Shown here: positions 3,780 through 59,194 of the stretch, piece after piece
Layout: every line of letters begins with the position of its first letter
Numbering within the stretch: the stretch's first letter is position 1
Virus record (IMG/VR): IMGVR_UViG_3300023181_000003
Location: 1-64,000 of that record
DNA: 64,000 nucleotides
Origin: a virus
Reading direction: 5' to 3' (one strand)
Notes under the pieces: model-generated
Databases searched by the model: none
What the model was told of the DNA's origin: nothing
What the model saw: only the letters and a program-made list of their open reading frames with translations
Position numbers and translations under genes: made by a program

Positions 3780-3980
3780 TTAAAATACAAATTCTGTATA
3801 AATCCAACCGTTTTGTTTTCCTGTATTGTCGTCCCATTCACCAACACATACATCATCTACATCACATACCAAAAGATCATCATGTACATGAACCCATCCT
3901 ACATGATAGGCGATTTCTCTCCAAAGTTCATATTGATCTTTACTGAAGTATGTTACTTTGCTCATTTTGTTTCCTTTCAA
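3780..3980 (-). CDS. hypothetical protein (first gene of leftward block)
   Basis: ORF track, 66 aa; AAAGGAAACAAA precedes the ATG; the antisense track ORF 3756..3995 is less plausible. Confidence 0.6.
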   Translation of the reverse strand: MKGNKMSKVTYFSKDQYELWREIAYHVGWVHVHDDLLVCDVDDVCVGEWDDNTGKQNGWIYTEFVF

Positions 3981-4022
3981 ATTTGTGATGTGTGATTGTA
4001 GATCAAGTGTGAAGTCTTATGT

Positions 4023-4040
4023 GTTGTATTTTCACTACAC
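4023..4040. promoter_or_regulatory. degenerate copy (opposite orientation) of the operator-like motif found at 40861 and 41341
   Basis: Reverse complement reads GTAGTGAAAATACAACAC; its 12 3'-terminal nt (AAAATACAACAC) are identical to 41349-41360 plus flank. Lies upstream of the leftward gene 3780..3980. Confidence 0.3.
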
Positions 4041-4096
4041 TATGTAAAGATTTGTAAAGTAGTGTAAATTATTCAGAAAGTAAGGGTAAATCCTAA

Positions 4097-4124
4097 TTGA
4101 CAAAATAGTGTTTTATGTTACAAT
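4097..4124 (+). promoter_or_regulatory. sigma70-type promoter (TTGACA, 16-nt spacer, TGtTACAAT)
   Basis: TTGACA at 4097-4102, TG at 4116-4117, TACAAT at 4119-4124. Confidence 0.55.
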
Positions 4125-4128
4125 AACA

Positions 4129-4619
4129 ACATAAATGCGGAAACTGCATCTCTAACATGGAATACACACATTGTACCATGAAATTGGAAAGTTTCTCGGA
4201 TTGTGTTGCGGTAAGTATCTTCTTTAAAACAAGGTGTAGACAGTGGGCATGATTTTAAAAGCCGTACACGTCGTGGAGACGGCAAAGGGTTAAGTAAGAG
4301 GTTGGAAGCTAAGATCAATGATGCTTCTTTCTTTTTCAGTGAGCCTGAACACGTAGGGAAGGATTCTAATGGATTCTTTTGAGTCACTGAACTGTATCTG
4401 TATGCTTGATCAATCTGCATACATCTAGCCTAAAGCTAGACAAAGACGGCTCCGGGGGAAATATCCTTGGTTGGTTTTGATTATAGTCTTAGATTCTGTA
4501 TTTCACATTTAAATTATGTGTTTGCAGAGTCTAGGGTAAACTGTATCTTAAAAACCCACCAAGGGAAATTATAGGTAACTAATATAATGAATAAGTATTA
4601 ATAAGATAAGGAGTCAATA
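4129..4619 (+). ncRNA. long ORF-free leader / candidate structured RNA (element A)
   Basis: ~490 nt between the promoter and the ATG at 4620 with no + strand ORF >=60 aa. Contains GNRA-type and long hairpins (e.g. 4488-4525). Its 3' 117 nt share an ordered motif series with 41207-41296. Confidence 0.35.
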
Positions 4620-5093
4620 ATGCCAAGTGTCTTTGAATGGTGGCTAGGTAGGCCAGAAGAAATAGTTATACCAAAACCAGAGAGAAAGAAATATACTGAT
4701 TTAACAGGACAGAGATTCACTAAACTACTTGTCCTAAACAGAATAGAATCAGATAAACACGTATATAAATATTTATGTCAATGTGATTGTAGTAATACTA
4801 AAGTTGTACTAGCACAGAATCTTAAAACTGGTAAAACTAAATCATGCGGATGTTTAAGAGAGTCTAAAGAGTGTTATTCTAAAATTAAACTAACACAAGC
4901 CCTTGTGCTTGAAAGATTTAATACTGCTCATGGAAACTTATATGATTATTCACAAGTTGTTTACAAAGGTATAGCAAATAAAGTGAGTATTGTTTGTTAC
5001 AAACATGGTGTTTTTATGCAAAGACCTGATAATCATTGGAATGGTGGTGGTTGTCCACACTGTTATAATGAAAATATTAAGAATAGATCATAA
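4620..5093 (+). CDS. homing-endonuclease-related DNA-binding protein (no nuclease motif seen)
   Basis: 157 aa. N-terminal module LTGQRFTKL...CQCDC...SCGC matches the repeats of the HNH-AP2 protein (6832). C-terminal module HGNLYDYS...CYKHG...GCPHC matches the repeats of the 49960 protein. GGAG 8 nt before the ATG. Confidence 0.7.
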   Translation: MPSVFEWWLGRPEEIVIPKPERKKYTDLTGQRFTKLLVLNRIESDKHVYKYLCQCDCSNTKVVLAQNLKTGKTKSCGCLRESKECYSKIKLTQALVLERFNTAHGNLYDYSQVVYKGIANKVSIVCYKHGVFMQRPDNHWNGGGCPHCYNENIKNRS

Positions 5094-5120
5094 ATATTTA
5101 TATGTATCCTCTAGTTTAGT

Positions 5121-5149
5121 ATATATTTAGATAATTCTTGTGATACAAT
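5121..5149 (+). promoter_or_regulatory. extended -10 promoter-like element (TGaTACAAT)
   Basis: TG at 5141-5142, TACAAT at 5144-5149; no good -35. Confidence 0.4.
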
Positions 5150-5340
5150 ACTCTTATGTAAGTAAATAGTTACTTCGGAAATAAAGAATGCACTCAAGAT
5201 CGTTACATATATTGTTCCCTTGAGGCTCACATTGTTTTATTACAGTGTGTCGAATTAATGCAGGTAAGGTGTTTATGGATACACATTAGCCTTCCAAGCT
5301 TAAATAGATCGGCTCGGTACCGACTACCTGCTCCAAATAA

Positions 5341-5410
5341 GGATGAGTATACCGTTAAGGAGGCGGAACCGGCTGTAACTCGGTTGGATCGTTACCAAGA
5401 TCATCCACCA
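5341..5410 (+). ncRNA. tRNA-like element, anticodon-loop CU-GUA-AC (Tyr-type), reduced D/T arms, encoded ACCA end
   Basis: Hand fold: acceptor GGATGA(5341-46)/TCATCC(5401-06) then A-CCA; anticodon stem ACCGG/TCGGT with a 7-nt loop (GTA at 5375-77); D stem of only 3 bp; T arm of only 3 bp with a non-canonical loop. Confidence 0.3.
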
Positions 5411-5533
5411 AATAATTAAAGATCACCTACCTTAGTGACCGATAGACCCTCGGCGAGATAAGAAATTCTCAGGTGTCCGCATCAAGCAGCTTAAGCGAAA
5501 TGTAAGCCCTGTAATTGTAAGCAGGATAAATAT

Positions 5534-5611
5534 AGCGGTGTAGTTCAGTCCGGTAGAACAGGGGTCTCATACGCCTCATGTCATGGGTTCAAATCCCATC
5601 ATTCGCAACCA
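5534..5611 (+). tRNA. tRNA-Met-like (anticodon CAT) with non-closing acceptor stem; possibly pseudogene or part of a larger composite
   Basis: Canonical D arm (GTTC/AGTCCGGTA/GAAC), anticodon arm (GGGGT/CTCATAC/GCCTC) and T arm (ATGGG/TTCAAAT/CCCAT), ending ..CATTCGC-A-ACCA. The adjacent 5' strand AGCGGTG does not pair with CATTCGC. Confidence 0.45.
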
Positions 5612-5728
5612 AGCATCTGTGACCCACATGCAGCAATTGAAGCTGGCAATGTCGAACAGAGTTAACACGCACAACAATTACACAGCTTTCCTCCTTTCTA
5701 TGTGATAGTTGCTCTGTGCCCTAATAAT

Positions 5729-5812
5729 ACCGACTTCGCATAGAGGCCGATTGCACCTGTTTTGTAAGCAGGAATATAAACACCGTAAGTTCAAATCTTA
5801 CAGTCGGCACCA
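5729..5812 (+). tRNA. tRNA-like, anticodon TGT (Thr-type), encoded CCA, unusual 12-nt variable loop
   Basis: Hand fold: acceptor ACCGACT/AGTCGGC (A1-C72 mismatch); D arm GCAT/AGAGGCCGA/TTGC; anticodon arm CCTGT/TTTGTAA/GCAGG; T arm GTAAG/TTCAAAT/CTTAC; A-CCA at 5809-5812. Confidence 0.5.
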
Positions 5813-5832
5813 AATAAAGAAAAGAATATATC

Positions 5833-6177
5833 ATGGCAAATCCTAATTTAGTAAAAGGTGCCCCTGCTTTACCTGGGGCTGGTAGACCACCTGGGAGTGG
5901 TAACAAATCTAAAGCTTCTTCATTACGTAAAACTTTAAAGAAACTAAAGTCGTTTGAAGAGAAAGCTATCCAAAACATTGAAGACAGTGTTAATGGAAAA
6001 GAAGTAGATAAAGAGCAACTAGCATCCTCTAAGTGGCTTGTAACAAGTGTTGTAACAGTCCAGAAAGCTTGTTTAGCTGAAGAACAGTTTAAAGAATCCC
6101 TCAATGATGAGGATGAAGAGAAAGAACCTGTGGTTGAAAAACCTAAGTTTTCTCTTAATATTGTAAATAAGATTTAA
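5833..6177 (+). CDS. hypothetical protein; possible small terminase / DNA-binding protein
   Basis: ORF track, 114 aa; N-terminal GAGRPPGSGNK basic motif and acidic C-terminus; lies upstream of terL. The function call is a guess. Confidence 0.6.
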   Translation: MANPNLVKGAPALPGAGRPPGSGNKSKASSLRKTLKKLKSFEEKAIQNIEDSVNGKEVDKEQLASSKWLVTSVVTVQKACLAEEQFKESLNDEDEEKEPVVEKPKFSLNIVNKI

Positions 6178-7769: not shown

Positions 7770-7989
7770 AAACTTGTGCCTCCATTCAAAACTCTTTTAA
7801 ACGGGGAAACCTAAACAGATATTGCTGTAGGCAATCCCGTGCCAATGTTTAAAGACAGTGCGTAGAGGCCAGCCGCAAGGCGTAAGATTCAAGCGAATCT
7901 GAAACAGAGAGAATGTTTAAATACATTAAGAGATGGTCCGACACTCAGGGAAACTTGAGAGAGGTTTAGCGAACTTCATAACAGATACG
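7770..7989 (+). ncRNA. candidate self-splicing (group I-like) intron in terL; boundaries +/-3 nt
   Basis: 220 nt (220 mod 3 = 1, the frame offset between exon ORFs). Preceded by U and ends in G. GGUGGU/GCCUCC (7778-83) gives a P1-like pairing with terminal U-G. GNRA-capped hairpins at 7803-12, 7872-81 and 7944-59, plus hairpins at 7821-35, 7886-99 and 7912-27. Confidence 0.5.
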
Positions 7990-9393
7990 GCAATGGGTGG
8001 TGGCAAGTCCTATTGTGGCTTGTTACGCCATCTGAGATGGGTAGATGATCCTAATTATCGTGGATTCATTATCCGTAAAAACCAAACAACATTAGCTAAA
8101 TCTGGTGGTTTGTTTGATGAAGCTAAGACTCTTTACAGAGCATTTGAGCCTAGAGTAAAGATTAACAAGAAAGATATGAAGTTTGAGTTCCCTTCGGGGG
8201 CTGAGATTGCCATGTCCCATCTTGAAACAGACGATGACGCTGAGAAGTACCGTGGTTTACAAATCTCTGCGGCCATGATCGACGAGGCCACACAACTGAG
8301 CGAAGAAAATACTTTAGTTGTACTTTCACGTCTTAGGTCTAAAGCTAAGATGATTCCAAATCTTTTCCTAACGTGTAACCCGAATCCAGATTCTTATTTA
8401 CGTAAATGGATTGATTGGTGGATTATCCCTAAAGGTGCCACAAACGCAGGTCGTGCCAATCCAGACAGAGATGGAAAGATTCGTTGGTTCATTCGTCTAA
8501 ATAACGAGATGATATGGGCTGACACCAAGCAAGAATTACTAGAGCAGTATGCTTCTAGAGATTCTGATGGAAATATTCTTCCTGAAGATAGTGAATTCCA
8601 GTATATACGTCCTTTGTCATTGCAGTTTATATCTGCAACCATTTATGACAACCCTATACTTATTAAAACAAATCCAAACTACCTTGCCAACTTACTTGGA
8701 TTAAAACGAGTAAAGCAAGAGCGGGATTTATATGGTAATTGGGATATACGCGAAGACGCAGCAGGGTTCTGGAAAAGTGAATGGTTAGGAGAACCAGTAA
8801 AAGAATCTGATTATGATATTGTTTCATATTGCAGGGCATGGGATATCGCAGGTTCACTACCCTCAGAAGCAATGCCTAATCCAGACTGGACAGCCGGGGT
8901 ACTTATTGGAAAAAGCCGAGAAGGTATTTATCTAATTCTCGATGTAGTAAGATTCAGAGCAAGATTTGGCGAAGTAATGAAGAACATTATTTCTACTGCC
9001 TCTATCGATCCTGAAGGTACAAAAATTATATTACCACAAGAGCCAGGGCAAGCAGGTAAAGCAGCAGGGCAAATGATGATTCGTGAGTTAATTTCCGAAG
9101 GGTTTTATGCTCGTATGCGACCATCTAATAAATCTAAGCTTATACGTTTTCAACCCTTCGTGGCTGCATCAGAAGCAGGTATGGTGAGAATGGTACGAGG
9201 TCCTTGGAATGATGATTATACGTCTGAGTTAGTAGCCTTTGATGCAACACGTAACATTAAGGACGATCAAGTTGATGCCACATCAGACGCTTTTATCACA
9301 CTAGCTCAGAAAATTCAAATACCTAATATTCTATCTGGTATTCAATCAGCAAATTTATCAAGATCAAATCCACTCGTTGGATTAAATAACTAA
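7990..9393 (+). CDS. terL: terminase large subunit, main coding part (track ORF 7933..9393)
   Basis: Walker A AMGGGKS, Walker B-like AAMIDEAT, ~470 aa, immediately followed by the portal gene. The track ATG at 7933 has no usable SD and gives only 19 aa before the P-loop. Confidence 0.85.
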   Translation, partial: AMGGGKSYCGLLRHLRWVDDPNYRGFIIRKNQTTLAKSGGLFDEAKTLYRAFEPRVKINKKDMKFEFPSGAEIAMSHLETDDDAEKYRGLQISAAMIDEATQLSEENTLVVLSRLRSKAKMIPNLFLTCNPNPDSYLRKWIDWWIIPKGATNAGRANPDRDGKIRWFIRLNNEMIWADTKQELLEQYASRDSDGNILPEDSEFQYIRPLSLQFISATIYDNPILIKTNPNYLANLLGLKRVKQERDLYGNWDIREDAAGFWKSEWLGEPVKESDYDIVSYCRAWDIAGSLPSEAMPNPDWTAGVLIGKSREGIYLILDVVRFRARFGEVMKNIISTASIDPEGTKIILPQEPGQAGKAAGQMMIRELISEGFYARMRPSNKSKLIRFQPFVAASEAGMVRMVRGPWNDDYTSELVAFDATRNIKDDQVDATSDAFITLAQKIQIPNILSGIQSANLSRSNPLVGLNN

Positions 9394-36438: not shown

Positions 36439-38247
36439 TTAAAAACTTACATTACTTCTAGAATGATAATCATCTAAATCTACTACTTTACGGGTTTGAG
36501 TGTCATATACCCACGCTCCAGCTTCACCAGTATCTCCATTACGACATTTCGGAAGTCTAACATATGTTGTGTTTCTTTCTACAAAATCTTCTGCCATTTT
36601 ATCACGGTCAATAAGAATATTGTAAGCAGCAGATTGAACAAAAGTTCCAGAACCTAAAGCATCATATTCATTTATTTCACGAATTTTCCCATCCTTATCA
36701 GGATTAGGTTTTCTCGTATGCAAGACGTTCACAATTGTAATCCCACTCTTAACCATTCCTTTTTGGAACTTTAAATGACTCTCTTGTGCTTCAATAGGCA
36801 TACCTCGAAGGATATCGGTTAGAACATCAATTACAATCAGTTTACATCCATGAGACTTAACTAATTTTTCCATTTGTTTCTCTAACTCTTTAATATCACC
36901 ATCCCTTTCATCTAGAATTGCCCATCGAGGTTCTCCATTTTCATCAACAAGAAGATCATCATACAATTCCATCACTTCTGGTTTTTCTAGATAATCAATG
37001 ATTTCTTCACCATCACCCATTCTAACAAGATTTTTCTCTAAATGAATAGATAACATATCTAATGTATACTGACCGGCTGTAGCCTCTAAAGAAACAACCC
37101 CTGGTTTTACTGGTGAATTAAAAATCCAATGATACATCATATTGTTCACATGACTAGATTTACCAACAGAAGTATTACCAATTATATTAACAATACGTCC
37201 TTGCTGTGGTCCGCCACCCATCATAGAGGATAATTTCTTCATATATGGTGGAAGAGGAATTCTCGGCCTACGTAATTCTTCTTTAACGTCTTCCATTAAA
37301 CCTGCTGAAGAACGAATACCTGTGTTTATTACAGGTTTAGCATTATAGAAGTCTCTTAGGAATTGTTTTTCTTTACCGTCATTAAGCATTTTGTTTGGGT
37401 CTTTACCAGACCATGTAACAACCTTAACTTTTTCCTGGGGTAGAACTTTTATAATTTCTTCTACAGCTTTTTTACCCGCCTCATCATTATCCATTCCAAT
37501 AATAATATTTTCAAACTCATCACAGAATTCATACTGTGTAGCAATCTGTTTAGCTGCATTACCTTCACCACATGTCGGGGACACTACAGCAATAGAATCA
37601 TATCCTTCTTGACCTTTACTGATTTGATAATCGCGGAGCATTTGATATGCTGCAACTTTATCTTCTTCACCACCTACAATTAGAATATATTTTCCACCAG
37701 CTTGAAATCTCACTTGTCCACTAAGTTCACATGATAGACCAGTAATTCCACGTTTACCATATCGAAAATCTTTAGGGTGATTTCGACATTTATATCCTAC
37801 AACTTCACCATCTTTTGTTTCTGGATAATAACGTGCTAAGACATTTCCTCTACTATCAACCTTAGCCATGTGTCCATAAAATTTACTGTACTCATCTTTA
37901 ATACCACGATAATTGTTTGTATTATATGTTAGTGTCTTACGAAAGTCTTTAATATCTTCTTTACTCATTGGAGGGATTTTGGAAACCTTTGTGTATTTTG
38001 GTTTCTCTTTTACAATTCCGTCTTCAATTCCAAGTAAATCGGCTAGACTAGTATTAGCTACTTCATTTTTACTAAAATACTGGCAGCAACTAAAGCAGTA
38101 GCCATCATATTCTACATTACCCTCATCATCTTCATGTTCATAAACTTTCAATGCATCTGAGCTAAAACATTCCTGTTTTCCATTAACTTCATTTGCAATA
38201 CATTCAAAATTATTATTTAGTAACTGTCCGCTTTCTTTTGCACTCAT
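36439..38247 (-). CDS. bifunctional primase-helicase (T7 gp4-like)
   Basis: 602 aa; Cys-rich N-terminal zinc-binding region, TOPRIM acidic motifs (GGEEDK, GMDNDEAGKKA), Walker A GNTSVGKSS, Walker B-like LIVIDVL. Confidence 0.9.
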   Translation of the reverse strand: MSAKESGQLLNNNFECIANEVNGKQECFSSDALKVYEHEDDEGNVEYDGYCFSCCQYFSKNEVANTSLADLLGIEDGIVKEKPKYTKVSKIPPMSKEDIKDFRKTLTYNTNNYRGIKDEYSKFYGHMAKVDSRGNVLARYYPETKDGEVVGYKCRNHPKDFRYGKRGITGLSCELSGQVRFQAGGKYILIVGGEEDKVAAYQMLRDYQISKGQEGYDSIAVVSPTCGEGNAAKQIATQYEFCDEFENIIIGMDNDEAGKKAVEEIIKVLPQEKVKVVTWSGKDPNKMLNDGKEKQFLRDFYNAKPVINTGIRSSAGLMEDVKEELRRPRIPLPPYMKKLSSMMGGGPQQGRIVNIIGNTSVGKSSHVNNMMYHWIFNSPVKPGVVSLEATAGQYTLDMLSIHLEKNLVRMGDGEEIIDYLEKPEVMELYDDLLVDENGEPRWAILDERDGDIKELEKQMEKLVKSHGCKLIVIDVLTDILRGMPIEAQESHLKFQKGMVKSGITIVNVLHTRKPNPDKDGKIREINEYDALGSGTFVQSAAYNILIDRDKMAEDFVERNTTYVRLPKCRNGDTGEAGAWVYDTQTRKVVDLDDYHSRSNVSF

Positions 38248-40514: not shown

Positions 40515-40621
40515 TTGTTTCCTTAATCAAATTTAAGCCCCTAGGAGGCTGTTAAAACACTTCAAGCACCTACCCTACTACTTTAGTAAATTAAGGGGCT
40601 TTTAGAGGCTTCTGGTGGGTT

Positions 40622-40789
40622 TTAGAACGTGTCGCTCTTTACACTCTCAAGTAAATCTTGAAAATTGGAATATACAATATCCGCCCTCTTATGGTCGCTA
40701 AAGGATTCACTATCCGCTAACCTCCAGTATTCTTGTCCTAGGTTAAACGCAGATTTAAGCATCTTTTCTAGTGTAATCACATCTGTCAT
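40622..40789 (-). CDS. hypothetical protein (55 aa), first gene of leftward replication block
   Basis: Hand-translated MTDVITLEKMLKSAFNLGQEYWRLAD...; AAAGGAAGAGT precedes the ATG. Confidence 0.45.
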   Translation of the reverse strand: MTDVITLEKMLKSAFNLGQEYWRLADSESFSDHKRADIVYSNFQDLLESVKSDTF

Positions 40790-40860
40790 ACTCTTCCTTT
40801 CATTATAAAAACAACATTATTCTGGCACACATATAGAAATATAGCAAGAATAATTACACT

Positions 40861-40880
40861 ACTAGTTGTAAAAATACAAC
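40861..40880. repeat. operator-like 20-mer ACTAGTTGTAAAAATACAAC (copy 1) containing palindrome GTTGTA-N4-TACAAC
   Basis: Exact 20/20 repeat of 41341-41360; lies between divergent promoters. Confidence 0.55.
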
Positions 40881-40906
40881 AAAATGCAAATATATTTTAA
40901 CAAAGC

Positions 40907-40935
40907 ATGAATTTAGTGAAATCTTGTGTTATAAT
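40907..40935 (+). promoter_or_regulatory. extended -10 promoter (TGtTATAAT)
   Basis: TG at 40927-28, TATAAT at 40930-35; weak -35. Confidence 0.5.
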
Positions 40936-40941
40936 GTCATT

Positions 40942-41340
40942 TCACACTGATTATGTTTGTGATGCTTGCTTCGTGTGAGCATTGTAGCATACGTTAGTGT
41001 GATCGTCTAGGGTGTTTTTGGGTAAACCGTCTTTTCCTTAGATTAAAGAACAAGTAAAGACTAGATCATGTTCAAGCTGTGGACTCGTGAAGGAATAACA
41101 GTGATTAGACTCCATGCTAGGAGGAAATTCCAAAGGTGTTGCGATTGCATTGTAACAACACCCGTGCATCTATAGAAAGATGTTCCATGTTTACATGGCT
41201 GTTAATGGCTCCGGGGTTGATTCTCTTAGTCTTGCAGATGTTTGAGTTTTTCAGATTAAGTTCTGAGGGACTCGTTCGTCTGTAATTTCACCAAGGTTGA
41301 TATAGTAATACATATTGTCAAGTAGTTAATTAATATAGAT
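40942..41340 (+). ncRNA. ORF-free transcript region / candidate structured RNA (element C)
   Basis: ~400 nt between two promoter/operator copies, with no ORF >=60 aa on either strand. 41207-41296 shares an ordered motif series (GGCTCCGGGG, TTGATT, TAGTCTT, hairpin, CACCAAGG) with 4448-4564. Confidence 0.35.
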
Positions 41341-41360
41341 ACTAGTTGTAAAAATACAAC
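41341..41360. repeat. operator-like 20-mer ACTAGTTGTAAAAATACAAC (copy 2)
   Basis: Exact repeat of 40861-40880. Confidence 0.55.
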
Positions 41361-41366
41361 ACAAAC

Positions 41367-41395
41367 TATCTTAAATGTTACAACTGGTGTATAAT
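41367..41395 (+). promoter_or_regulatory. promoter-like element (TATAAT 41390-41395)
   Basis: TATAAT about 29 nt downstream of operator copy 2; poor -35. Confidence 0.4.
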
Positions 41396-41423
41396 GTGAG
41401 AACATAAACATGAAAGGAAATAT

Positions 41424-41558
41424 ATGAGTGATACATGGATTAATTGGAGATTTGGATTCTGGTATTTTCAGTTAGGTAAGAAATTTAAATTTCTACATAT
41501 TTACAAACAAATGCATATTCCCGTTGCTGGTGATAAATGGTTTCAGAGTTATAAATGA
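41424..41558 (+). CDS. hypothetical protein (44 aa), first rightward gene
   Basis: Hand-translated MSDTWINWRFGFWYFQLGKKFKFLHIYKQMHIPVAGDKWFQSYK; AAAGGAAATAT precedes the ATG. Confidence 0.45.
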   Translation: MSDTWINWRFGFWYFQLGKKFKFLHIYKQMHIPVAGDKWFQSYK

Positions 41559-41635
41559 CACTATTAATATGTTGGATTCTGATTTACATAGTTTATCAGT
41601 TGGATAAGATAATTGATTTATTGAAAGGAAAATAA
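41555..41635 (+). CDS. possible 26-aa hydrophobic peptide
   Basis: ATGA-coupled to the previous ORF; MTLLICWILIYIVYQLDKIIDLLKGK; very short, weak support. Confidence 0.25.
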   Translation: MTLLICWILIYIVYQLDKIIDLLKGK

Positions 41636-41636
41636 T

Positions 41637-42143
41637 ATGAAAGAAAAACTTAAGGTCCGTGTAGGACAGTTTTGGAAACGTCGTGATGGAAGGATTGTCA
41701 GGATTGACGCTATATCTAAGTTACCAAACGATGACTATTTTTTACTCATTAACGATTATACAACTAGAGATAGTTTTGGGCTTGATTTAACAGAGGTCAC
41801 TCACGATCTTATTGAACCAATAATCTCTATTTATGCAGCCGGTCCAATGTCGGGCTATCCAGATAACAACTATCCAGCTTTTAATGAAGAATCTGCCATC
41901 TTACGAAATCAAGGTTTCCATGTAGAAAATCCAGCACAAAACCCTGATCCTCATGATAAATGCTGGAATGGTTATATGCGTACTGCAATCAGGCAATTGA
42001 TTGAATGTGATCGTATTCATTTACTAGAAAATTGGAGTAAATCTCGCGGGGCTCTTGTGGAGTATAAACTAGCTAAAGGTCTAGGATTAGAAATCACATT
42101 CCAAAATGGACAAGCTGCATCAGAGGAAATCAATGTCAAATAA
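41637..42143 (+). CDS. DUF4406 / nucleoside 2-deoxyribosyltransferase-like protein
   Basis: 168 aa; [21 protein letters not shown]...[20 protein letters not shown] matches the DUF4406 pattern (recollection); extra ~60-aa N-terminal domain. Confidence 0.65.
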
Positions 42144-42877: not shown

Positions 42878-43064
42878 TTGTTGGTTAGGCTTTCCTTTTG
42901 AAGATAATCCATCCACTGTAGAAATTCAAGTAGATACAAATAAATTTGGATATACAGATAAGGAGTGGAGTATGTTAAGTGATTGGGGAAAGCGTGATAT
43001 TGTCAATGATGAAATCTTTAAGAATTTAAACAAAGGCTTTTATGAGCTAGAAGGAGAGCAATGA
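42867..43064 (+). CDS. hypothetical protein
   Basis: Track ORF starts at TTG 42861; ATG at 42867. Confidence 0.55.
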   Translation: MKLNCWLGFPFEDNPSTVEIQVDTNKFGYTDKEWSMLSDWGKRDIVNDEIFKNLNKGFYELEGEQ

Positions 43065-43942
43065 GTAATGAAGATTGGAAAAATGAAGCTGTCACACTAT
43101 CGAAAGATGGGTTATCACAGAGAGCTATTAGTAAATTATTAGATGTTCCAAAGAGTACATTAGGAGACTATTTAAAAGTATTCTATTCAAAACCAAGTGT
43201 AGAGAACAAACCAACACAAATGTTCTCTGTCCGTAAGTCACGAGATATTTCAAATGATCGTGTGTTAGTTATTAGTGATTTACATATTCCTTACCATCAT
43301 CCTGATAGTTTTGAATTCCTAGAATCATTAAGAGTAAAGTATAAACCAACACGGGTTGTTTGTATGGGTGATGAGTTAGACCAACATGCTTTGAGCTACC
43401 ATGAACATGATCCAGACCTACCTAGTGCTGGAGATGAATTAGCTAGATCGCTTCCATTTATTAAACAACTACATGAAATCTTTCCTAAGATGGATGTGTT
43501 AGAATCTAATCATGGGAGTTTGATTTGGAGAAAGACAAAGACAGCAGGAATTCCTAAGCATTATATCAAGTCTTATAATGATGTGCTTAGTGTCGGTGAA
43601 GATTGGAAATGGTCATTTGATCTAACAATTACACTTCCTGATGAGTCTAAATGTTATTTCCATCACGGTAAGTCTAGTGATGTTTTGAAGTTAAGTCAAC
43701 AAATGGGAATGCATGCTATACAAGGCCATTATCACGAAAAGTTTAAGATTGATTATTGGGGTAATCCCACTGGTCTTTATTGGGCTATGCAAACAGGTTG
43801 TTTAATTTCTGATGAATCATATGCATTTAATTATAACAATGTCAATATCAAACGTCCTGTTATTGGTACAGGTGTTATCATTGATTCTCACCCTATTTTA
43901 GAACCCCTTATTATGGATGAGAATGGTAGATGGATACGATGA
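43061..43942 (+). CDS. calcineurin-like metallophosphoesterase with N-terminal HTH-like segment
   Basis: 293 aa; motifs SDLHIPYH, GDELD, SNHG, HHGK and GHYH in canonical order; N-terminus LSQRAISKLLDVPKSTLGDYLK. Confidence 0.8.
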   Translation: MSNEDWKNEAVTLSKDGLSQRAISKLLDVPKSTLGDYLKVFYSKPSVENKPTQMFSVRKSRDISNDRVLVISDLHIPYHHPDSFEFLESLRVKYKPTRVVCMGDELDQHALSYHEHDPDLPSAGDELARSLPFIKQLHEIFPKMDVLESNHGSLIWRKTKTAGIPKHYIKSYNDVLSVGEDWKWSFDLTITLPDESKCYFHHGKSSDVLKLSQQMGMHAIQGHYHEKFKIDYWGNPTGLYWAMQTGCLISDESYAFNYNNVNIKRPVIGTGVIIDSHPILEPLIMDENGRWIR

Positions 43943-52823: not shown

Positions 52824-52847
52824 ATAGGGCTTAGTGCCCTATTTTTG
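52824..52847 (+). terminator. rho-independent terminator
   Basis: ATAGGGC-TTAGT-GCCCTAT followed by TTTTTG. Confidence 0.6.
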
Positions 52848-56516: not shown

Positions 56517-56534
56517 TGCATAAAAACAACACTA

Positions 56535-56575
56535 AGCCTTACAATTGTAAAAAGTTGTAAGGCTTTTTCTTTTTG
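56535..56575 (+). terminator. rho-independent terminator
   Basis: AGCCTTACAA...TTGTAAGGCT 10-bp stem followed by TTTTTCTTTTT. Confidence 0.7.
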
Positions 56576-57911: not shown

Positions 57912-58107
57912 TTTGGAACGTATTATTACTATGGTTGCTTATGCAATCCTTCCAAACCTCATGACAGGTTTTATTATTTGGGTTACTTTCCCATATATCA
58001 CCAATGAACTGATTGTTTTGTTTTCTCTGATTTTCAGTCCCATCTTTATGATTGCAAGTATGATTGCTGGTTTTGATCTTGGAAAGAAGTACAATGAAAA
58101 CAATTGA
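57901..58107 (+). CDS. small membrane protein (2 TM)
   Basis: 68 aa; two hydrophobic segments. Confidence 0.55.
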   Translation: MKINLERIITMVAYAILPNLMTGFIIWVTFPYITNELIVLFSLIFSPIFMIASMIAGFDLGKKYNENN

Positions 58108-59194
58108 ATACATAAAACAAAATGGCCTTAAGGCTCTTACAGATGATTTAGCTATTGCTGTAAAGCCTTTTATCACTCCAGAAGGTGATACACTTTACCT
58201 ACTTGATTACAATCAAATTGATTCACCTAAGTGTCATCCTGTAGTTATGGAATGCCGTAGCCTTATCATTGATAGTGAATATAATGTTGTTAGCCGATCA
58301 TTCGATAGGTTTTTCAATATTTCCGAGGCCCCTGATGTAACACCAAAAATTGATTGGTCTACAGATGTTGTAGCTTCTAAAGTGGACGGAAGTTTGACAA
58401 AGGTTTTCTGTTATAAAAACACTTGGTATATTTCAACACGTGGAACTGCATTTGCTGATAGTAAGGTTGGTCCTTGGGATATGACTTTCCGAGATTTGGT
58501 ATTGAAGGCTCTAGATGTTTACGATGATGAAGAGTTTCAGAATCGTTGTAATAAATTTCTAGATAAAGAAAACACTTACATCTTTGAAGTAACTTCTATG
58601 GAGAATAGGGTTGTAACTCGGTATGAGGGATATACTCTACACTTGCTTGCTATCCGAAATAATCTAGTTGGTAATTACATTGACGTAAATCAATTGAGTT
58701 CAGAGTTTCGACATAAGAATGTAAAGACTTATTCTTTTGCTACTGAGAAAGAATGTATTGATGCCGCAAATAATTTACCAGATTTAGAGGAAGGCTATGT
58801 TGTATATAAACAAGGCATTCCAATCTGCAAGATTAAAAGTCCCCTATACGTCAGCATCCACTATGTAAAAGGAAATGGTCTTACTCCGAGGATCATAATG
58901 GAAAAGATTCTAGAGAACGAAGTAGAAGAATACCTAGCATACTTCCCTGAAGATGCAAAGCATTTCCTTCCATACCAGAAGGCTTTGATTTCTCTGATGA
59001 TTGATGTACATGAGAGTTTTATTAAAAATATTACTATTGTAAATCAAAAAGATTTTGCTATGGCTGTGAAAGACACTCCTTTTGCTGCTATACTCTTCTT
59101 TGCACGTAAGAGTGGTGTTGGAGTGGCTGAGAGTTTTGAACTTCAGACAGCACCATATAAGCTACGTCTGCTTGAGACGTATGTAAAAGTTTGA
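58094..59194 (+). CDS. ATP-dependent RNA ligase, Rnl1-like (KxDGS type)
   Basis: Start moved to the ATG at 58094. Motif I ASKVDGSL, then YIFEV, EGYVVY and CKIKSP, which resemble motifs III, IV and V. Confidence 0.7.
   Translation: MKTIEYIKQNGLKALTDDLAIAVKPFITPEGDTLYLLDYNQIDSPKCHPVVMECRSLIIDSEYNVVSRSFDRFFNISEAPDVTPKIDWSTDVVASKVDGSLTKVFCYKNTWYISTRGTAFADSKVGPWDMTFRDLVLKALDVYDDEEFQNRCNKFLDKENTYIFEVTSMENRVVTRYEGYTLHLLAIRNNLVGNYIDVNQLSSEFRHKNVKTYSFATEKECIDAANNLPDLEEGYVVYKQGIPICKIKSPLYVSIHYVKGNGLTPRIIMEKILENEVEEYLAYFPEDAKHFLPYQKALISLMIDVHESFIKNITIVNQKDFAMAVKDTPFAAILFFARKSGVGVAESFELQTAPYKLRLLETYVKV

Follow-up and report, generated by a model that had tools for sequence, protein, structure and literature searches.

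A conserved, structured non-coding leader RNA at the head of a rightward phage gene array

Operators and promoters at the junction

The stretch of DNA analysed, called the window here, covers positions 1 to 64,000 of the virus record IMGVR_UViG_3300023181_000003. Between 40790 and 41636, neither strand contains an open reading frame (ORF) of 60 or more amino acids, and the largest ones encode 51, 49, 44, 43, and 35 amino acids. The features of the region are collected in Table 1. The 20-mer ACTAGTTGTAAAAATACAAC occurs there in two exact copies, at 40861 and 41341; about 0.02 matches are expected by chance, and none of 100 shuffled sequences gave two. The identity runs to 22 nt (40860-40881 equals 41340-41361), and the 22-mer holds the palindrome GTTGTA-N4-TACAAC. 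The initial annotation had described a non-coding segment bracketed by two identical promoter modules. The ORF gap, the exact repeat, and the two -10 elements were all confirmed in the sequence, but the repeat is confined to the 22-mer with its palindromic operator and does not extend to a whole module. The segment is indeed flanked by operator sites, O1 and O2, although the distance from the 22-mer to the -10 element differs, with 69 bp at the first copy versus 49 bp at the second.

In related phages the 22-mer changes as an operator would, the inverted repeat being kept in place while its spacer varies. This is seen for both O1 and O2 in L006, and for O2 in L007 and L046, where the equivalents of O2 are TAGTTGTAttacgACAACA (L006), TAGTTGTAttacTACAACA (L007), and TAGTGGTAttacTACAACA (L046). 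The palindrome has the form GTTGTA-N4-TACAAC at both window sites and in L007, and GTGGTA-N4-TACAAC in L046. L006 has GTTGT-N6-ACAAC twice, one of them a homologous palindrome at the position equivalent to O1. These 22-bp palindromes are confined to the sub-clade made up of the window copy (copy B), L006, L007, and L046. O1 and O2 are putative DNA sites of one dimeric regulator. The centre of O1 is at about -69.5 relative to the predicted P1 start, and with O2 at -49.5 from P2, the two would be presented on the same helical face.

O1 also adjoins a candidate leftward promoter. Near O2, the minus-strand hexamer within TTGTCAA is probably what remains of a divergent-promoter module that was duplicated. 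Its counterpart is ATGTCAA in L006 and L007, and it is missing in L046. In phiPMW, the same TTGTCAA-type motif is the -35 of a published leftward promoter (PMC5587285). Around the P2 -10 element, TGTAyAATGTGAGAAC is invariant in three sequences, and the 44-aa peptide of the first rightward gene is kept in L007 and L046. P2 lies between the leader RNA described below and this gene, so in this window the genes can be expressed without the leader.

Table 1. Positions of the features in the window
Feature	Position	Strand	Remarks
Element A	4097-4570	+	promoter TTGACA 4097-4102, TGtTACAAT 4116-4124; RNA ~4131-4570
O1	40860-40881		first 22-mer copy; palindrome GTTGTA-AAAA-TACAAC 40865-40880
P1, extended -10 TGtTATAAT	40927-40935	+	predicted start near 40942
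Leader RNA B	~40942-41301	+	~360 nt; nhmmer relatives, covariation, fold, no conserved ORF, no Rfam match
5' terminal stem TCACACTGAT/GTTAGTGTGA around TGATGCTTGC/GTGAGCATTG and conserved CATTGTAGCA	40942-41002	+	MFE fold
Hairpin He TCTAGGG ... CCTTAGA, apical TTTGGGTAAACCGT	41006-41049	+	TTAAAGA motif directly after
Helix Hf GCTGT ... ACAGT	41076-41102	+	surrounds conserved GTGGA
Hairpin Hd CTCC-ATGCTA-GGAG	41110-41123	+	100% of cells paired; 3/4 pairs compensatory
Hairpin Ha GGTGTTG/CAACACC, loop CGATTGCATTGTAA	41135-41162	+	6/7 pairs compensatory
Hairpins Hb GCATCT/AGATGT and Hc CCATG-TTTA-CATGG	41166-41198	+	covariation
R1 CTGTTAAT-GGCTCC-GG-X1	41199-41221	+	X1 = GGTTGAT, 41215-41221
Z TTAGTCTTG	41226-41234	+	GU-complementary to CGG+X1 and to CAA+X2
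Long hairpin LH CAGATG/CGTCTG, GAGT/ACTC, TCAGA/TCTGA	41235-41282	+	10/16 pairs compensatory
R2 TAATT-TCACC-AA-X2	41283-41301	+	X2 = GGTTGAT, 41295-41301
TTGTCAA (minus strand: TTGACAA)	41315-41321	-	leftward -35-like hexamer, without good -10
O2	41340-41361		second 22-mer copy; centre ~-49.5 from predicted P2 start
P2 -10 TATAAT (relatives TACAAT)	41390-41395	+	then conserved GTGAGAAC
SD GAAAGGAAA and first rightward gene	41412-41558	+	44-aa ORF, 41424-41558

The leader RNA and its fold

It is near certain that leader RNA B is real, a conserved, structured, non-coding RNA of the plus strand and not a spacer. The minimum free energy of the plus strand is -118 kcal/mol (z -4.4), versus -78.8 kcal/mol (z -2.6) for the minus strand. 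In alignment A9, 96.5% of the cells are paired compared with 73.5% in shuffles, and 14 of 19 pairs are compensatory; no shuffle out of 500 was as good, and slid controls reached 16-54%. Alignment A7 has 19 compensatory pairs out of 27, and again none of 500 shuffles equalled it. The compensatory changes in relatives are thus significant in both alignments, as the initial annotation had anticipated. The resulting fold consists of at least eight covarying helices and a covarying loop-loop contact. The earlier proposal that the upstream promoter transcribes some 400 nt of structured non-coding RNA is supported by this covariation, by the fold, and by the promoters found upstream of family members, with P1 itself being a predicted promoter.

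L006 has GTGAT/GTCAC and L007 GTGAT/ATCAC as variants of the 5' terminal stem; they were read from the alignment by eye, and the support for this stem is weaker than for the other helices. The He stem reaches 5 bp or more in 20 members and takes 17 different sequences there; UUAAAG or a close variant follows within 0-2 nt of its end. On alignment A9, Hf is CUGU/ACAG in copy B, L133, and L144, CGAC/GUCG in L006, and GAUG/CAUC in L007. The ATGC in the Hd loop (41114-41117) pairs with the GCAT in the Ha loop (41147-41150), forming a kissing or pseudoknot contact in which 100% of the cells are paired and three of four pairs are compensatory (6 sequences). The GGTGTTG/CAACACC stem of Ha had already been pointed out, with an end coordinate one off; its strands are at 41135-41141 and 41156-41162, and they covary. 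The CCATG-TTTA-CATGG hairpin (Hc, 41185-41198) is present as annotated and also covaries, being replaced in relatives by CTTAC/GTAAG, TCTC/GAGA, and CCAC/GTGG. LH carries a conserved GGG bulge (AGGGA, 41266-41270). Since this comparatively backed hairpin, CAGATG..GAGT..TCAGA/TCTGA..ACTC..CGTCTG at 41235-41282, conflicts with the 8-bp stem CTTAGTCT/AGATTAAG annotated at first, the latter is unsupported. The CCTTGG closing helix of element A had been considered lost here, but a weak, GU-rich equivalent was found between UUAGUCUUG (41226-34) and CAAGGUUGA (41292-300).

The idea that the region acts solely as DNA, through divergent promoters and operators with no RNA function between them, has become almost negligible. 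Both palindromes (O1 and O2) and the promoters do exist. However, the compensatory double changes keep Watson-Crick or G.U pairs in many helices, which is unexpected for protein-binding DNA. Moreover, folding is asymmetric between the strands, and most family members lack the operators yet have the RNA.

Relatives of the RNA and a second copy in the window

Single-linkage nhmmer searches tie copy B to about 25 myovirus loci, with E-values from 1e-3 to 1e-135. Copy B is linked to L006, L007, and L133 (E down to 1e-128), L133 is linked to SYP and phiPMW-like loci, and L064 to L065, L083, L092, and L151. A lack of conservation in related phages had been named as what would speak against the segment; it is conserved in L006, L007, L046, L133, and L144, and more distantly at about 20 further loci. 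L006, L007, and L046 are syntenic homologues of copy B. The members are 330-450 nt in size. In those that were read, the RNA is located just 3' of a sigma-70 promoter, and a long array of co-directional genes begins with it. Where upstream sequence was read, the promoters are of the type TTGACA-N16-18-TAnnnT, nearly all of them TGn-extended. The genes downstream are heterogeneous (DUF4406, small ORFs, HNH endonuclease, tRNAs). Two cultured phages, phiPMW (Pseudomonas) and vB_PpS_SYP, carry the RNA at a divergent promoter junction, where it is annotated as a hypothetical CDS (gp181 in phiPMW and gp113 in SYP). A published sigma-70 promoter (82304-82333) is directly upstream of the phiPMW copy (PMC5587285).

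The family is previously undescribed and has no match in Rfam 15. A gathering scan of the whole window with Rfam 15 found only tRNAs. E-value scans of 40700-41700, 3900-5900, and five relatives gave only chance matches, to snoRNA and miRNA models with E of at least 0.6. A further chance match, HOTAIR_2 (E 0.022), falls on the minus strand of L130 (1652-1723), outside the phiPMW RNA. For group I and group II introns and self-cleaving ribozyme cores, Rfam gave no match with the E limit raised to 10. Neither ARAGORN nor the Rfam tRNA model found a tRNA-like element in 40800-41400, and no pairing exists between GGCUCCG and the 7 nt that precede ACCA. A tRNA-like CCA end was dropped, and so were a hammerhead CUGAUGA, a CRISPR-like mini-array, ToxI-like repeats, translational bypass, and a leader peptide (MAP...).

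Other searches for relatives returned little. No match came from comparing the region with 50,697 phage records by blastn, nor from an exact 20-mer scan of IMG/VR. An IMG/VR scan with the motif TAATGGCTCC-N60-88-TTCACCAA yielded 38 matches, mostly one recurring common-phage sequence, with the rest being scattered singletons; these are unrelated, and loci L008-L045 are therefore irrelevant. A stricter motif, scanned in a single metagenome, gave two chance matches (L048 and L049), and locus searches based on one protein at a time, the 135-aa ORF or the primase, gave no match. L001-L005 and L047 were set aside as unrelated DUF4406 contexts. An nhmmer profile and the covariance model CM R1, built from the four closest relatives, recovered only their training sequences. 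The TerL-flank regular expression GGCTCC...CACCA found nothing, and nhmmer then found L133 and L144. The 5'-UTR non-coding RNA upstream of the primase in PAK_P3 (bioRxiv 10.1101/2023.10.13.562163) is unrelated.

Within the window itself, the motif block that copy B had been said to share with 4448-4564 is indeed there: a 7-mer comes after GGCTCCGG and recurs after CACCAA further on. It belongs to the 3' module of element A, which comprises R1 (GGCTCCGG+GGGAAAT, 4448-4462), Z (TCCTTGG), a long hairpin, and R2 (CCACCAA+GGGAAAT, to 4569). Element A would be a divergent second copy of the family, with its membership being architectural and not statistical: nhmmer with element A finds only itself, and CM R1 gives E=3.6. 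Both arrays headed by these elements are rightward, that of A covering 4.1-32 kb and that of B running from 41.4 to beyond 64 kb.

The 3' module and the possible roles of the RNA

The 3' module of the RNA contains two repeats, R1 (..AAU-GGCUCC-GG-X1) after Hc, and R2 (..AAU-UUCACC-AA-X2) after LH. Their X segments are the same within one element and different between elements. Exact identity of X1 and X2 over 7-13 nt is found in about 20 or more loci, with some 15 different X sequences; in L144 the repeat is degenerate. In many relatives, 0-40 nt separate X2 from the first gene's SD, which is not so in copy B. Pairing of GGCUCC with the anti-SD was considered and dropped, as it is not universal.

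Direct repeats flanking a hairpin resemble a target-site duplication with inverted repeats, and two GenBank records annotate a CDS at this place. The element could accordingly be imagined as a mobile insertion (MITE or intron) with X as its target-site duplication, or as small proteins or a mis-called gene (phiPMW gp181, SYP gp113), but these readings are barely credible. No ORF is conserved among members, the longest being 17-81 aa in differing frames and positions, and there is no group I or II intron match. Against a recent insertion, R1 and R2 are similar beyond X with fixed differences (GGCUCC-GG vs UUCACC-AA), and the interior hairpin covaries across deep relatives.

Segment Z, which was revealed only by a GU-tolerant duplex search, lies between the two repeats. 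Its pairing is clear and covaries with X in element A, L065, L083, L092, and L151, which have the alternative helices R1:Z and Z:R2. In copy B it is weak (-4.8 kcal/mol, equalled by 28% of shuffled linkers), and no such pairing was found in the phiPMW-like members, L006, L046, L078, SYP, and L133. Constrained folds give two mutually exclusive helices 0.4-9.6 kcal/mol apart. The pairing of both repeats with one Z in several members suggests a strand-exchange switch. Z would be able to exchange partners because G.U pairs (with CGG) or A-U pairs (with CAA) fit the same UUG in Z. As Z pairing was not found in several members, the switch model accounts for the identity of X1 and X2 in only part of the family.

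With about even confidence, we infer that leader RNA B is a plus-strand non-coding leader of some 360 nt, from a new family, that acts in cis as a riboregulator. Host RNA polymerase would start at P1 (~40942) and transcribe the leader RNA first, with the large 5' and central domain serving as a sensing or scaffold domain. Z, which lies directly after X1, would pair first with R1/X1 as a local hairpin. Synthesis of LH and R2/X2 would then allow R2/X2 to capture Z, and the state of the switch may then gate downstream events in cis, either read-through or ribosome access. In copy B, neither a terminator nor an SD-sequestering helix was identified, and there is no intrinsic terminator between the RNA and the downstream genes.

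This arrangement resembles riboswitch and attenuator leaders, in which a 5' leader right after the promoter has a multi-helix conserved domain with a loop-loop contact, and then a 3' module. The sharing of partner Z by R1/X1 and R2/X2 likewise recalls attenuator segments 2 and 4, which share segment 3. In contrast to riboswitches, the RNA here, at 330-450 nt, is above any known class; it has no terminator and no clear SD-sequestering helix, and Z pairing exists in part of the family. Furthermore, the family heads whole phage operons of 20-30 kb, not a metabolic gene.

The position of the RNA is also reminiscent of processive antitermination elements such as HK022 putL/putR or the lambda nutL/nutR and rrn nut-boxA leaders. 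The nascent RNA, alone or with Nus factors, would remain attached to RNA polymerase and render it resistant to terminators and to Rho over an operon of 20-30 kb. In keeping with this, each genome carries two paralogous copies, and each of the two long rightward arrays begins with a promoter followed closely by one of them. Strong intrinsic terminators are present within the rightward array, at 52824-52842 and 56534-56565, and element A is followed by tRNA genes, which are untranslated and sensitive to Rho. Like put and nut, it is a structured nascent RNA that is presumably cis-acting. However, with its eight or more helices the RNA here is 5-6 times larger than put, which has two stem-loops in about 70 nt; nut consists of boxA and a single hairpin. 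Neither the two-stem-loop fold of put nor a boxA with a boxB hairpin was found. The consensus of boxA is CGCUCUUA, and the order of hairpin-UUAAAG ... GUGGA is loosely like that of rrn boxB-boxA-boxC. The helix followed by UUAAAG is the sole resemblance, and the boxA reading is weak because phiPMW lacks UUAAAG and has UAUAGAAG instead. The CUGU beside GUGGA covaries as a helix strand, so there is no fixed boxC. Mimicry of boxA and boxC, being absent from phiPMW, was dropped. Antitermination also leaves the identity of X1 and X2 unexplained, and overall we consider it unlikely.

Somewhat less improbable, but still doubtful, is a stable RNA processed from the leader and acting in trans, either as a self-assembling ornate phage RNA like ROOL or GOLLD, or as a decoy or sponge that captures a host factor or a defence system. 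In that case, the identical X loops would provide two redundant seeds; at 7-13 nt, X has the size of an sRNA seed. Transcription from a strong early promoter would yield such an RNA first, its fold is complex, and the covarying loop-loop contact could be intermolecular. In this phage, P2 frees the genes from the leader. Element A adjoins tRNA genes, as ROOL and GOLLD often do (PMC12286853), and those RNAs are likewise large and highly structured phage non-coding RNAs with loop-loop contacts. Unlike them, the RNA here is smaller and sits in a fixed leader position after the promoter and before the genes, and it has no match to the models RF03087 and RF01998. Downstream of R2, neither a terminator nor a defined 3' end is present. 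X differs between A and B of the same genome, which speaks against one common target, and no perfect complement of X was found in cis or within about 15 kb.

A replication role, in which the P1 transcript would be a structured primer or form an R-loop in the manner of ColE1 RNA II or the T4 and T7 origin transcripts, is very unlikely. The element adjoins the primase-helicase and DNA polymerase module and is located at a cumulative GC-skew minimum. Like RNA II, it is a structured transcript of several hundred nt from a sigma-70 promoter, and its upstream RNA segment X1 copies the downstream X2, which recalls the RNA II-DNA interaction. However, the skew minima track gene orientation at both A and B, and in L133, L144, L148, and L151 the element is distant from replication genes, at the start of structural or tRNA operons. 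It has neither iterons nor an AT-rich unwinding element, and no promoter with a good -10 was found for an antisense partner of the RNA I type.

Returning to the cis-acting leader, its boldest version is a large phage riboregulator of a new class, an "operon-head RNA" that times or gates operons of 20-30 kb through the exchange of R1/X1:Z for Z:R2/X2 coupled to a pseudoknotted sensor, or else an ornate RNA with a catalytic or assembly role. We regard this as speculative and rather improbable. If true, it would mean RNA-based temporal control in lytic phages that have no RNA polymerase or sigma factor of their own and whose operons are on constitutive host sigma-70 promoters. Two identical variable segments in one RNA are an unusual design rule. 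Large, deeply conserved pseudoknotted RNAs are rare, and they have usually proved to be ribozymes, riboswitches, or ribonucleoprotein scaffolds. In an entire clade of lytic myoviruses (about 85-105 kb), the main operons begin with this RNA, and the clade includes a cultured phage-host pair amenable to genetics, phiPMW with Pseudomonas putida. So far the RNA has been overlooked or annotated as protein, and its recognition corrects public gene annotation. It may also offer a testable way into the question of how very long transcription units are controlled by phages that have no polymerase of their own.

Genome setting and structure of the RNA

The source genome is that of a lytic myovirus (about 94 kb, 36% G+C) whose portal protein shares 48% identity with its counterpart in Pseudomonas phage phiPMW. 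Genes at 32-40.8 kb point leftward and include those for DNA polymerase and primase-helicase, while those from 41.4 kb point rightward and include DUF4406, guanylate kinase, ribonucleotide reductase and RNA ligase. The segment thus sits in a divergent junction. As the initial annotation stated, there is no ORF of at least 60 aa on either strand from 40790 to 41636, and no conserved ORF was found in the RNA segment.

Hairpins Hd, Ha and Hb were tested jointly with a loop-loop helix between the Hd (41114-17) and Ha (41147-50) loops. In a 6-sequence alignment, 96.5% of cells were paired versus 73.5% in shuffles and 16-54% in slid controls, with compensatory changes in 14 of 19 pairs; none of 500 shuffles was as good. 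In the 3' half, a 4-sequence alignment gave 19 compensatory pairs out of 27 for Ha, Hc and the three-tier long hairpin LH (0/500 shuffles as good). Hairpin He ends 0-2 nt upstream of UUAAAG or a near variant; this holds for 20 members, whose stems show 17 distinct sequences. Folding yields -118 kcal/mol (z -4.4) on the plus strand versus -78.8 (z -2.6) on the minus strand. The existence of a conserved, plus-strand structured RNA is near certain (window B in the table). Two short stems proposed earlier are part of it; an 8-bp stem, CTTAGTCT/AGATTAAG, was discarded because it clashes with a covarying TCAGA/TCTGA helix. Rfam has no matching family for the window copies or their relatives. A published catalogue lists about 10,000 unnamed viral candidates for structured RNAs (PMC10690425), and the PAK_P3 5'-UTR ncRNA is unrelated to the leader RNA.

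Features of the leader RNA (window B) and of its divergent copy (element A)
Feature	Position	Sequence
Window B, 5' stem	40942-41002	
Window B, He + UUAAAGA	41006-41049	
Window B, Hf	41076-41102	
Window B, Hd	41110-41123	
Window B, Ha	41135-41162	
Window B, Hb	41166-41183	
Window B, Hc	41185-41198	
Window B, repeat R1	41199-41221	CUGUUAAU-GGCUCC-GG-GGUUGAU
Window B, segment Z	41226-41234	
Window B, LH	41235-41282	
Window B, repeat R2	41283-41301	UAAUU-UCACC-AA-GGUUGAU
Element A, promoter		TTGACA/TGtTACAAT
Element A, R1		GGCTCCGG+GGGAAAT
Element A, Z		TCCTTGG
Element A, long hairpin (as in L083, L092)		AGATTCTG...TAGGGTAA
Element A, R2		CCACCAA+GGGAAAT

Relatives of the RNA

DNA searches with the region itself returned no homologue. 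Three syntenic metagenomic contigs (L006, L007, L046), reached through homologues of the neighbouring DUF4406 protein, all keep the complete intervening segment, and a 3'-motif regex over loci fetched via primase alignment found the same 3' module in phiPMW-like genomes. Single-sequence nhmmer searches join 27 places in one homology network (window B-L006-L007-L133-L144; L133-SYP-phiPMW-like; L064-L065-L083-L092-L151; also L078 and L148). With these contigs and the wider network, the segment is conserved in related phages.

The phiPMW copy (~82,340-82,660) lies downstream of a published sigma-70 promoter at 82304-82333; the genome paper gives the flanking promoters and no RNA (PMC5587285). Its annotation is hypothetical protein gp181 (PMW_181, L130:1679-2068), and in vB_PpS_SYP the RNA overlaps hypothetical CDS gp113 (L131:621-866). 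Since neither reading frame is conserved in relatives, both calls are probably mis-annotations.

Direct repeats, possible alternative pairing and element A

A segment of ~25 nt after Hc recurs in direct orientation after LH in nearly every member. The two cores differ in a fixed manner (CUCC-GG versus CACC-AA, or CUAC-GG versus CAAC-AA), and the 7-13 nt that follow, X1 and X2, are identical within an element. Between elements X takes about 15 variants, even within this genome (GGTTGAT in B, GGGAAAT in A); vB_PpS_SYP and L133 have other cores, yet X1 = X2 is kept. L092 (3747-3905, minus strand) carries a third X copy (GGGGAATATT) just upstream of GGCTCC.

X has no perfect complement nearby. A GU-tolerant search showed two possible partners, CGG+X1 and CAA+X2, for Z, which directly follows X1: window A, L065, L083, L092 and L151 have potential pairings that covary with X and reach 9 bp, and window B has a weak one. 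Constrained folds come out as two mutually exclusive structures, Z with R1/X1 or with R2/X2. Alternative pairing would require X1 to equal X2, and would make the GG of R1 equivalent to the AA of R2, since both pair with UU. This account would cover only part of the family and is unproven for the phiPMW-like members.

Element A (4097-4570), a second, divergent copy of the architecture, contains the motif block noted at 4448-4564: R1, Z, the long hairpin and R2 are all present. Its Ha-like loop is perfectly palindromic (TTGATCAA). It heads a tRNA and structural operon, and between it and the tRNA genes lies an HNH-type homing-endonuclease-like ORF (4620-5093; PHROG 374/681/559), probably a mobile insertion. 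A third extended -10 promoter, TGaTACAAT (5141-5149), precedes the tRNA cluster, where calls differ: Gly(tcc) at 5260-5335 by ARAGORN only, 5535-5607 by Rfam only, and 5729-5812 by both.

Promoters, gene context and proposed function

The exact 20-mer is present at both 40861 and 41341 (chance expectation about 0.02 matches), and identity extends to 22 nt (O1, 40860-40881; O2, 41340-41361) containing the palindrome GTTGTA-N4-TACAAC. Both -10 elements are also found, TGtTATAAT at 40927-35 (promoter P1) and TATAAT at 41390-95 (P2). Of the proposed duplicated operator/promoter module, the operator is indeed duplicated and the whole promoter module is not. The repeat lies 69 bp from its -10 at O1 and 49 bp at O2; the operator centres, at ~-69.5 and ~-49.5, are on the same face of the helix. 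The palindrome is kept at both sites in L006, and in L007 and L046 at O2; its spacer varies. P2 is kept in all three as TGTAyAATGTGAGAAC, and P1 is kept too, in L006 as TTGACA-17-TACATT with a TG extension. The window B sub-clade has an extra module inserted between leader and gene, made of a leftward -35 that is probably a relic, together with O2 and P2.

On the minus strand, TGtAATTAT (40850-40858) is a candidate extended -10 for a leftward 55-aa ORF; because it abuts O1, O1 may govern both divergent promoters. Its L006 counterpart is TTGACA-17-TTGAAT with a TG extension, the O1 centre lying near -49.5. As pure speculation, the nearest DNA-binding candidate for the palindrome is an N-terminal HTH domain (HTH_23 / HTH_SB-like) fused to a metallophosphoesterase (43061-43942; PHROG 221). 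The 44-aa ORF at 41424-41558 (MSDTWINWRFGFWYFQLGK...) is a real small gene that immediately follows P2; its protein sequence is conserved in L007 and L046, and it is absent in L006. The 107-nt gap that separates the leftward 55-aa and 135-aa ORFs holds a long inverted repeat (40535-40601, AAGCCCCT ... AGGGGCTT), which on the minus-strand transcript could form a hairpin for processing or termination.

The rightward array contains two strong intrinsic-terminator-like hairpins (52824-52842 and 56534-56565), past both of which same-strand genes continue, and a T4 Rnl1-type RNA ligase gene (58064-59194) with a bearing on tRNA repair and on any cut-and-rejoin model of the leader. Among 5.8 billion proteins, no relative of the primase-helicase (36439-38247) exceeds 65% identity (62% at full length), versus 75-88% for relatives of TerL (7933-9393), so the replication module looks mosaic relative to the structural one.

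Fully read members head long co-directional arrays and lie just 3' of a sigma-70 promoter whose -10 is nearly always TGn-extended. Some adjoin replication or nucleotide-metabolism genes; L133, L144, L148, L151 and window A lie upstream of a tRNA and structural module. No terminator was found after the RNA, and in many relatives X2 is within 0-40 nt of the first-gene SD. The RNA could be a put- or nut-like antitermination element, a trans-acting or ornate RNA, or a primer RNA. The reading favoured on its position and the repeat/Z evidence is a leader riboregulator that acts in cis through a strand-exchange switch, a function to which we give about an even chance. With phiPMW as a family member, experiments become feasible.
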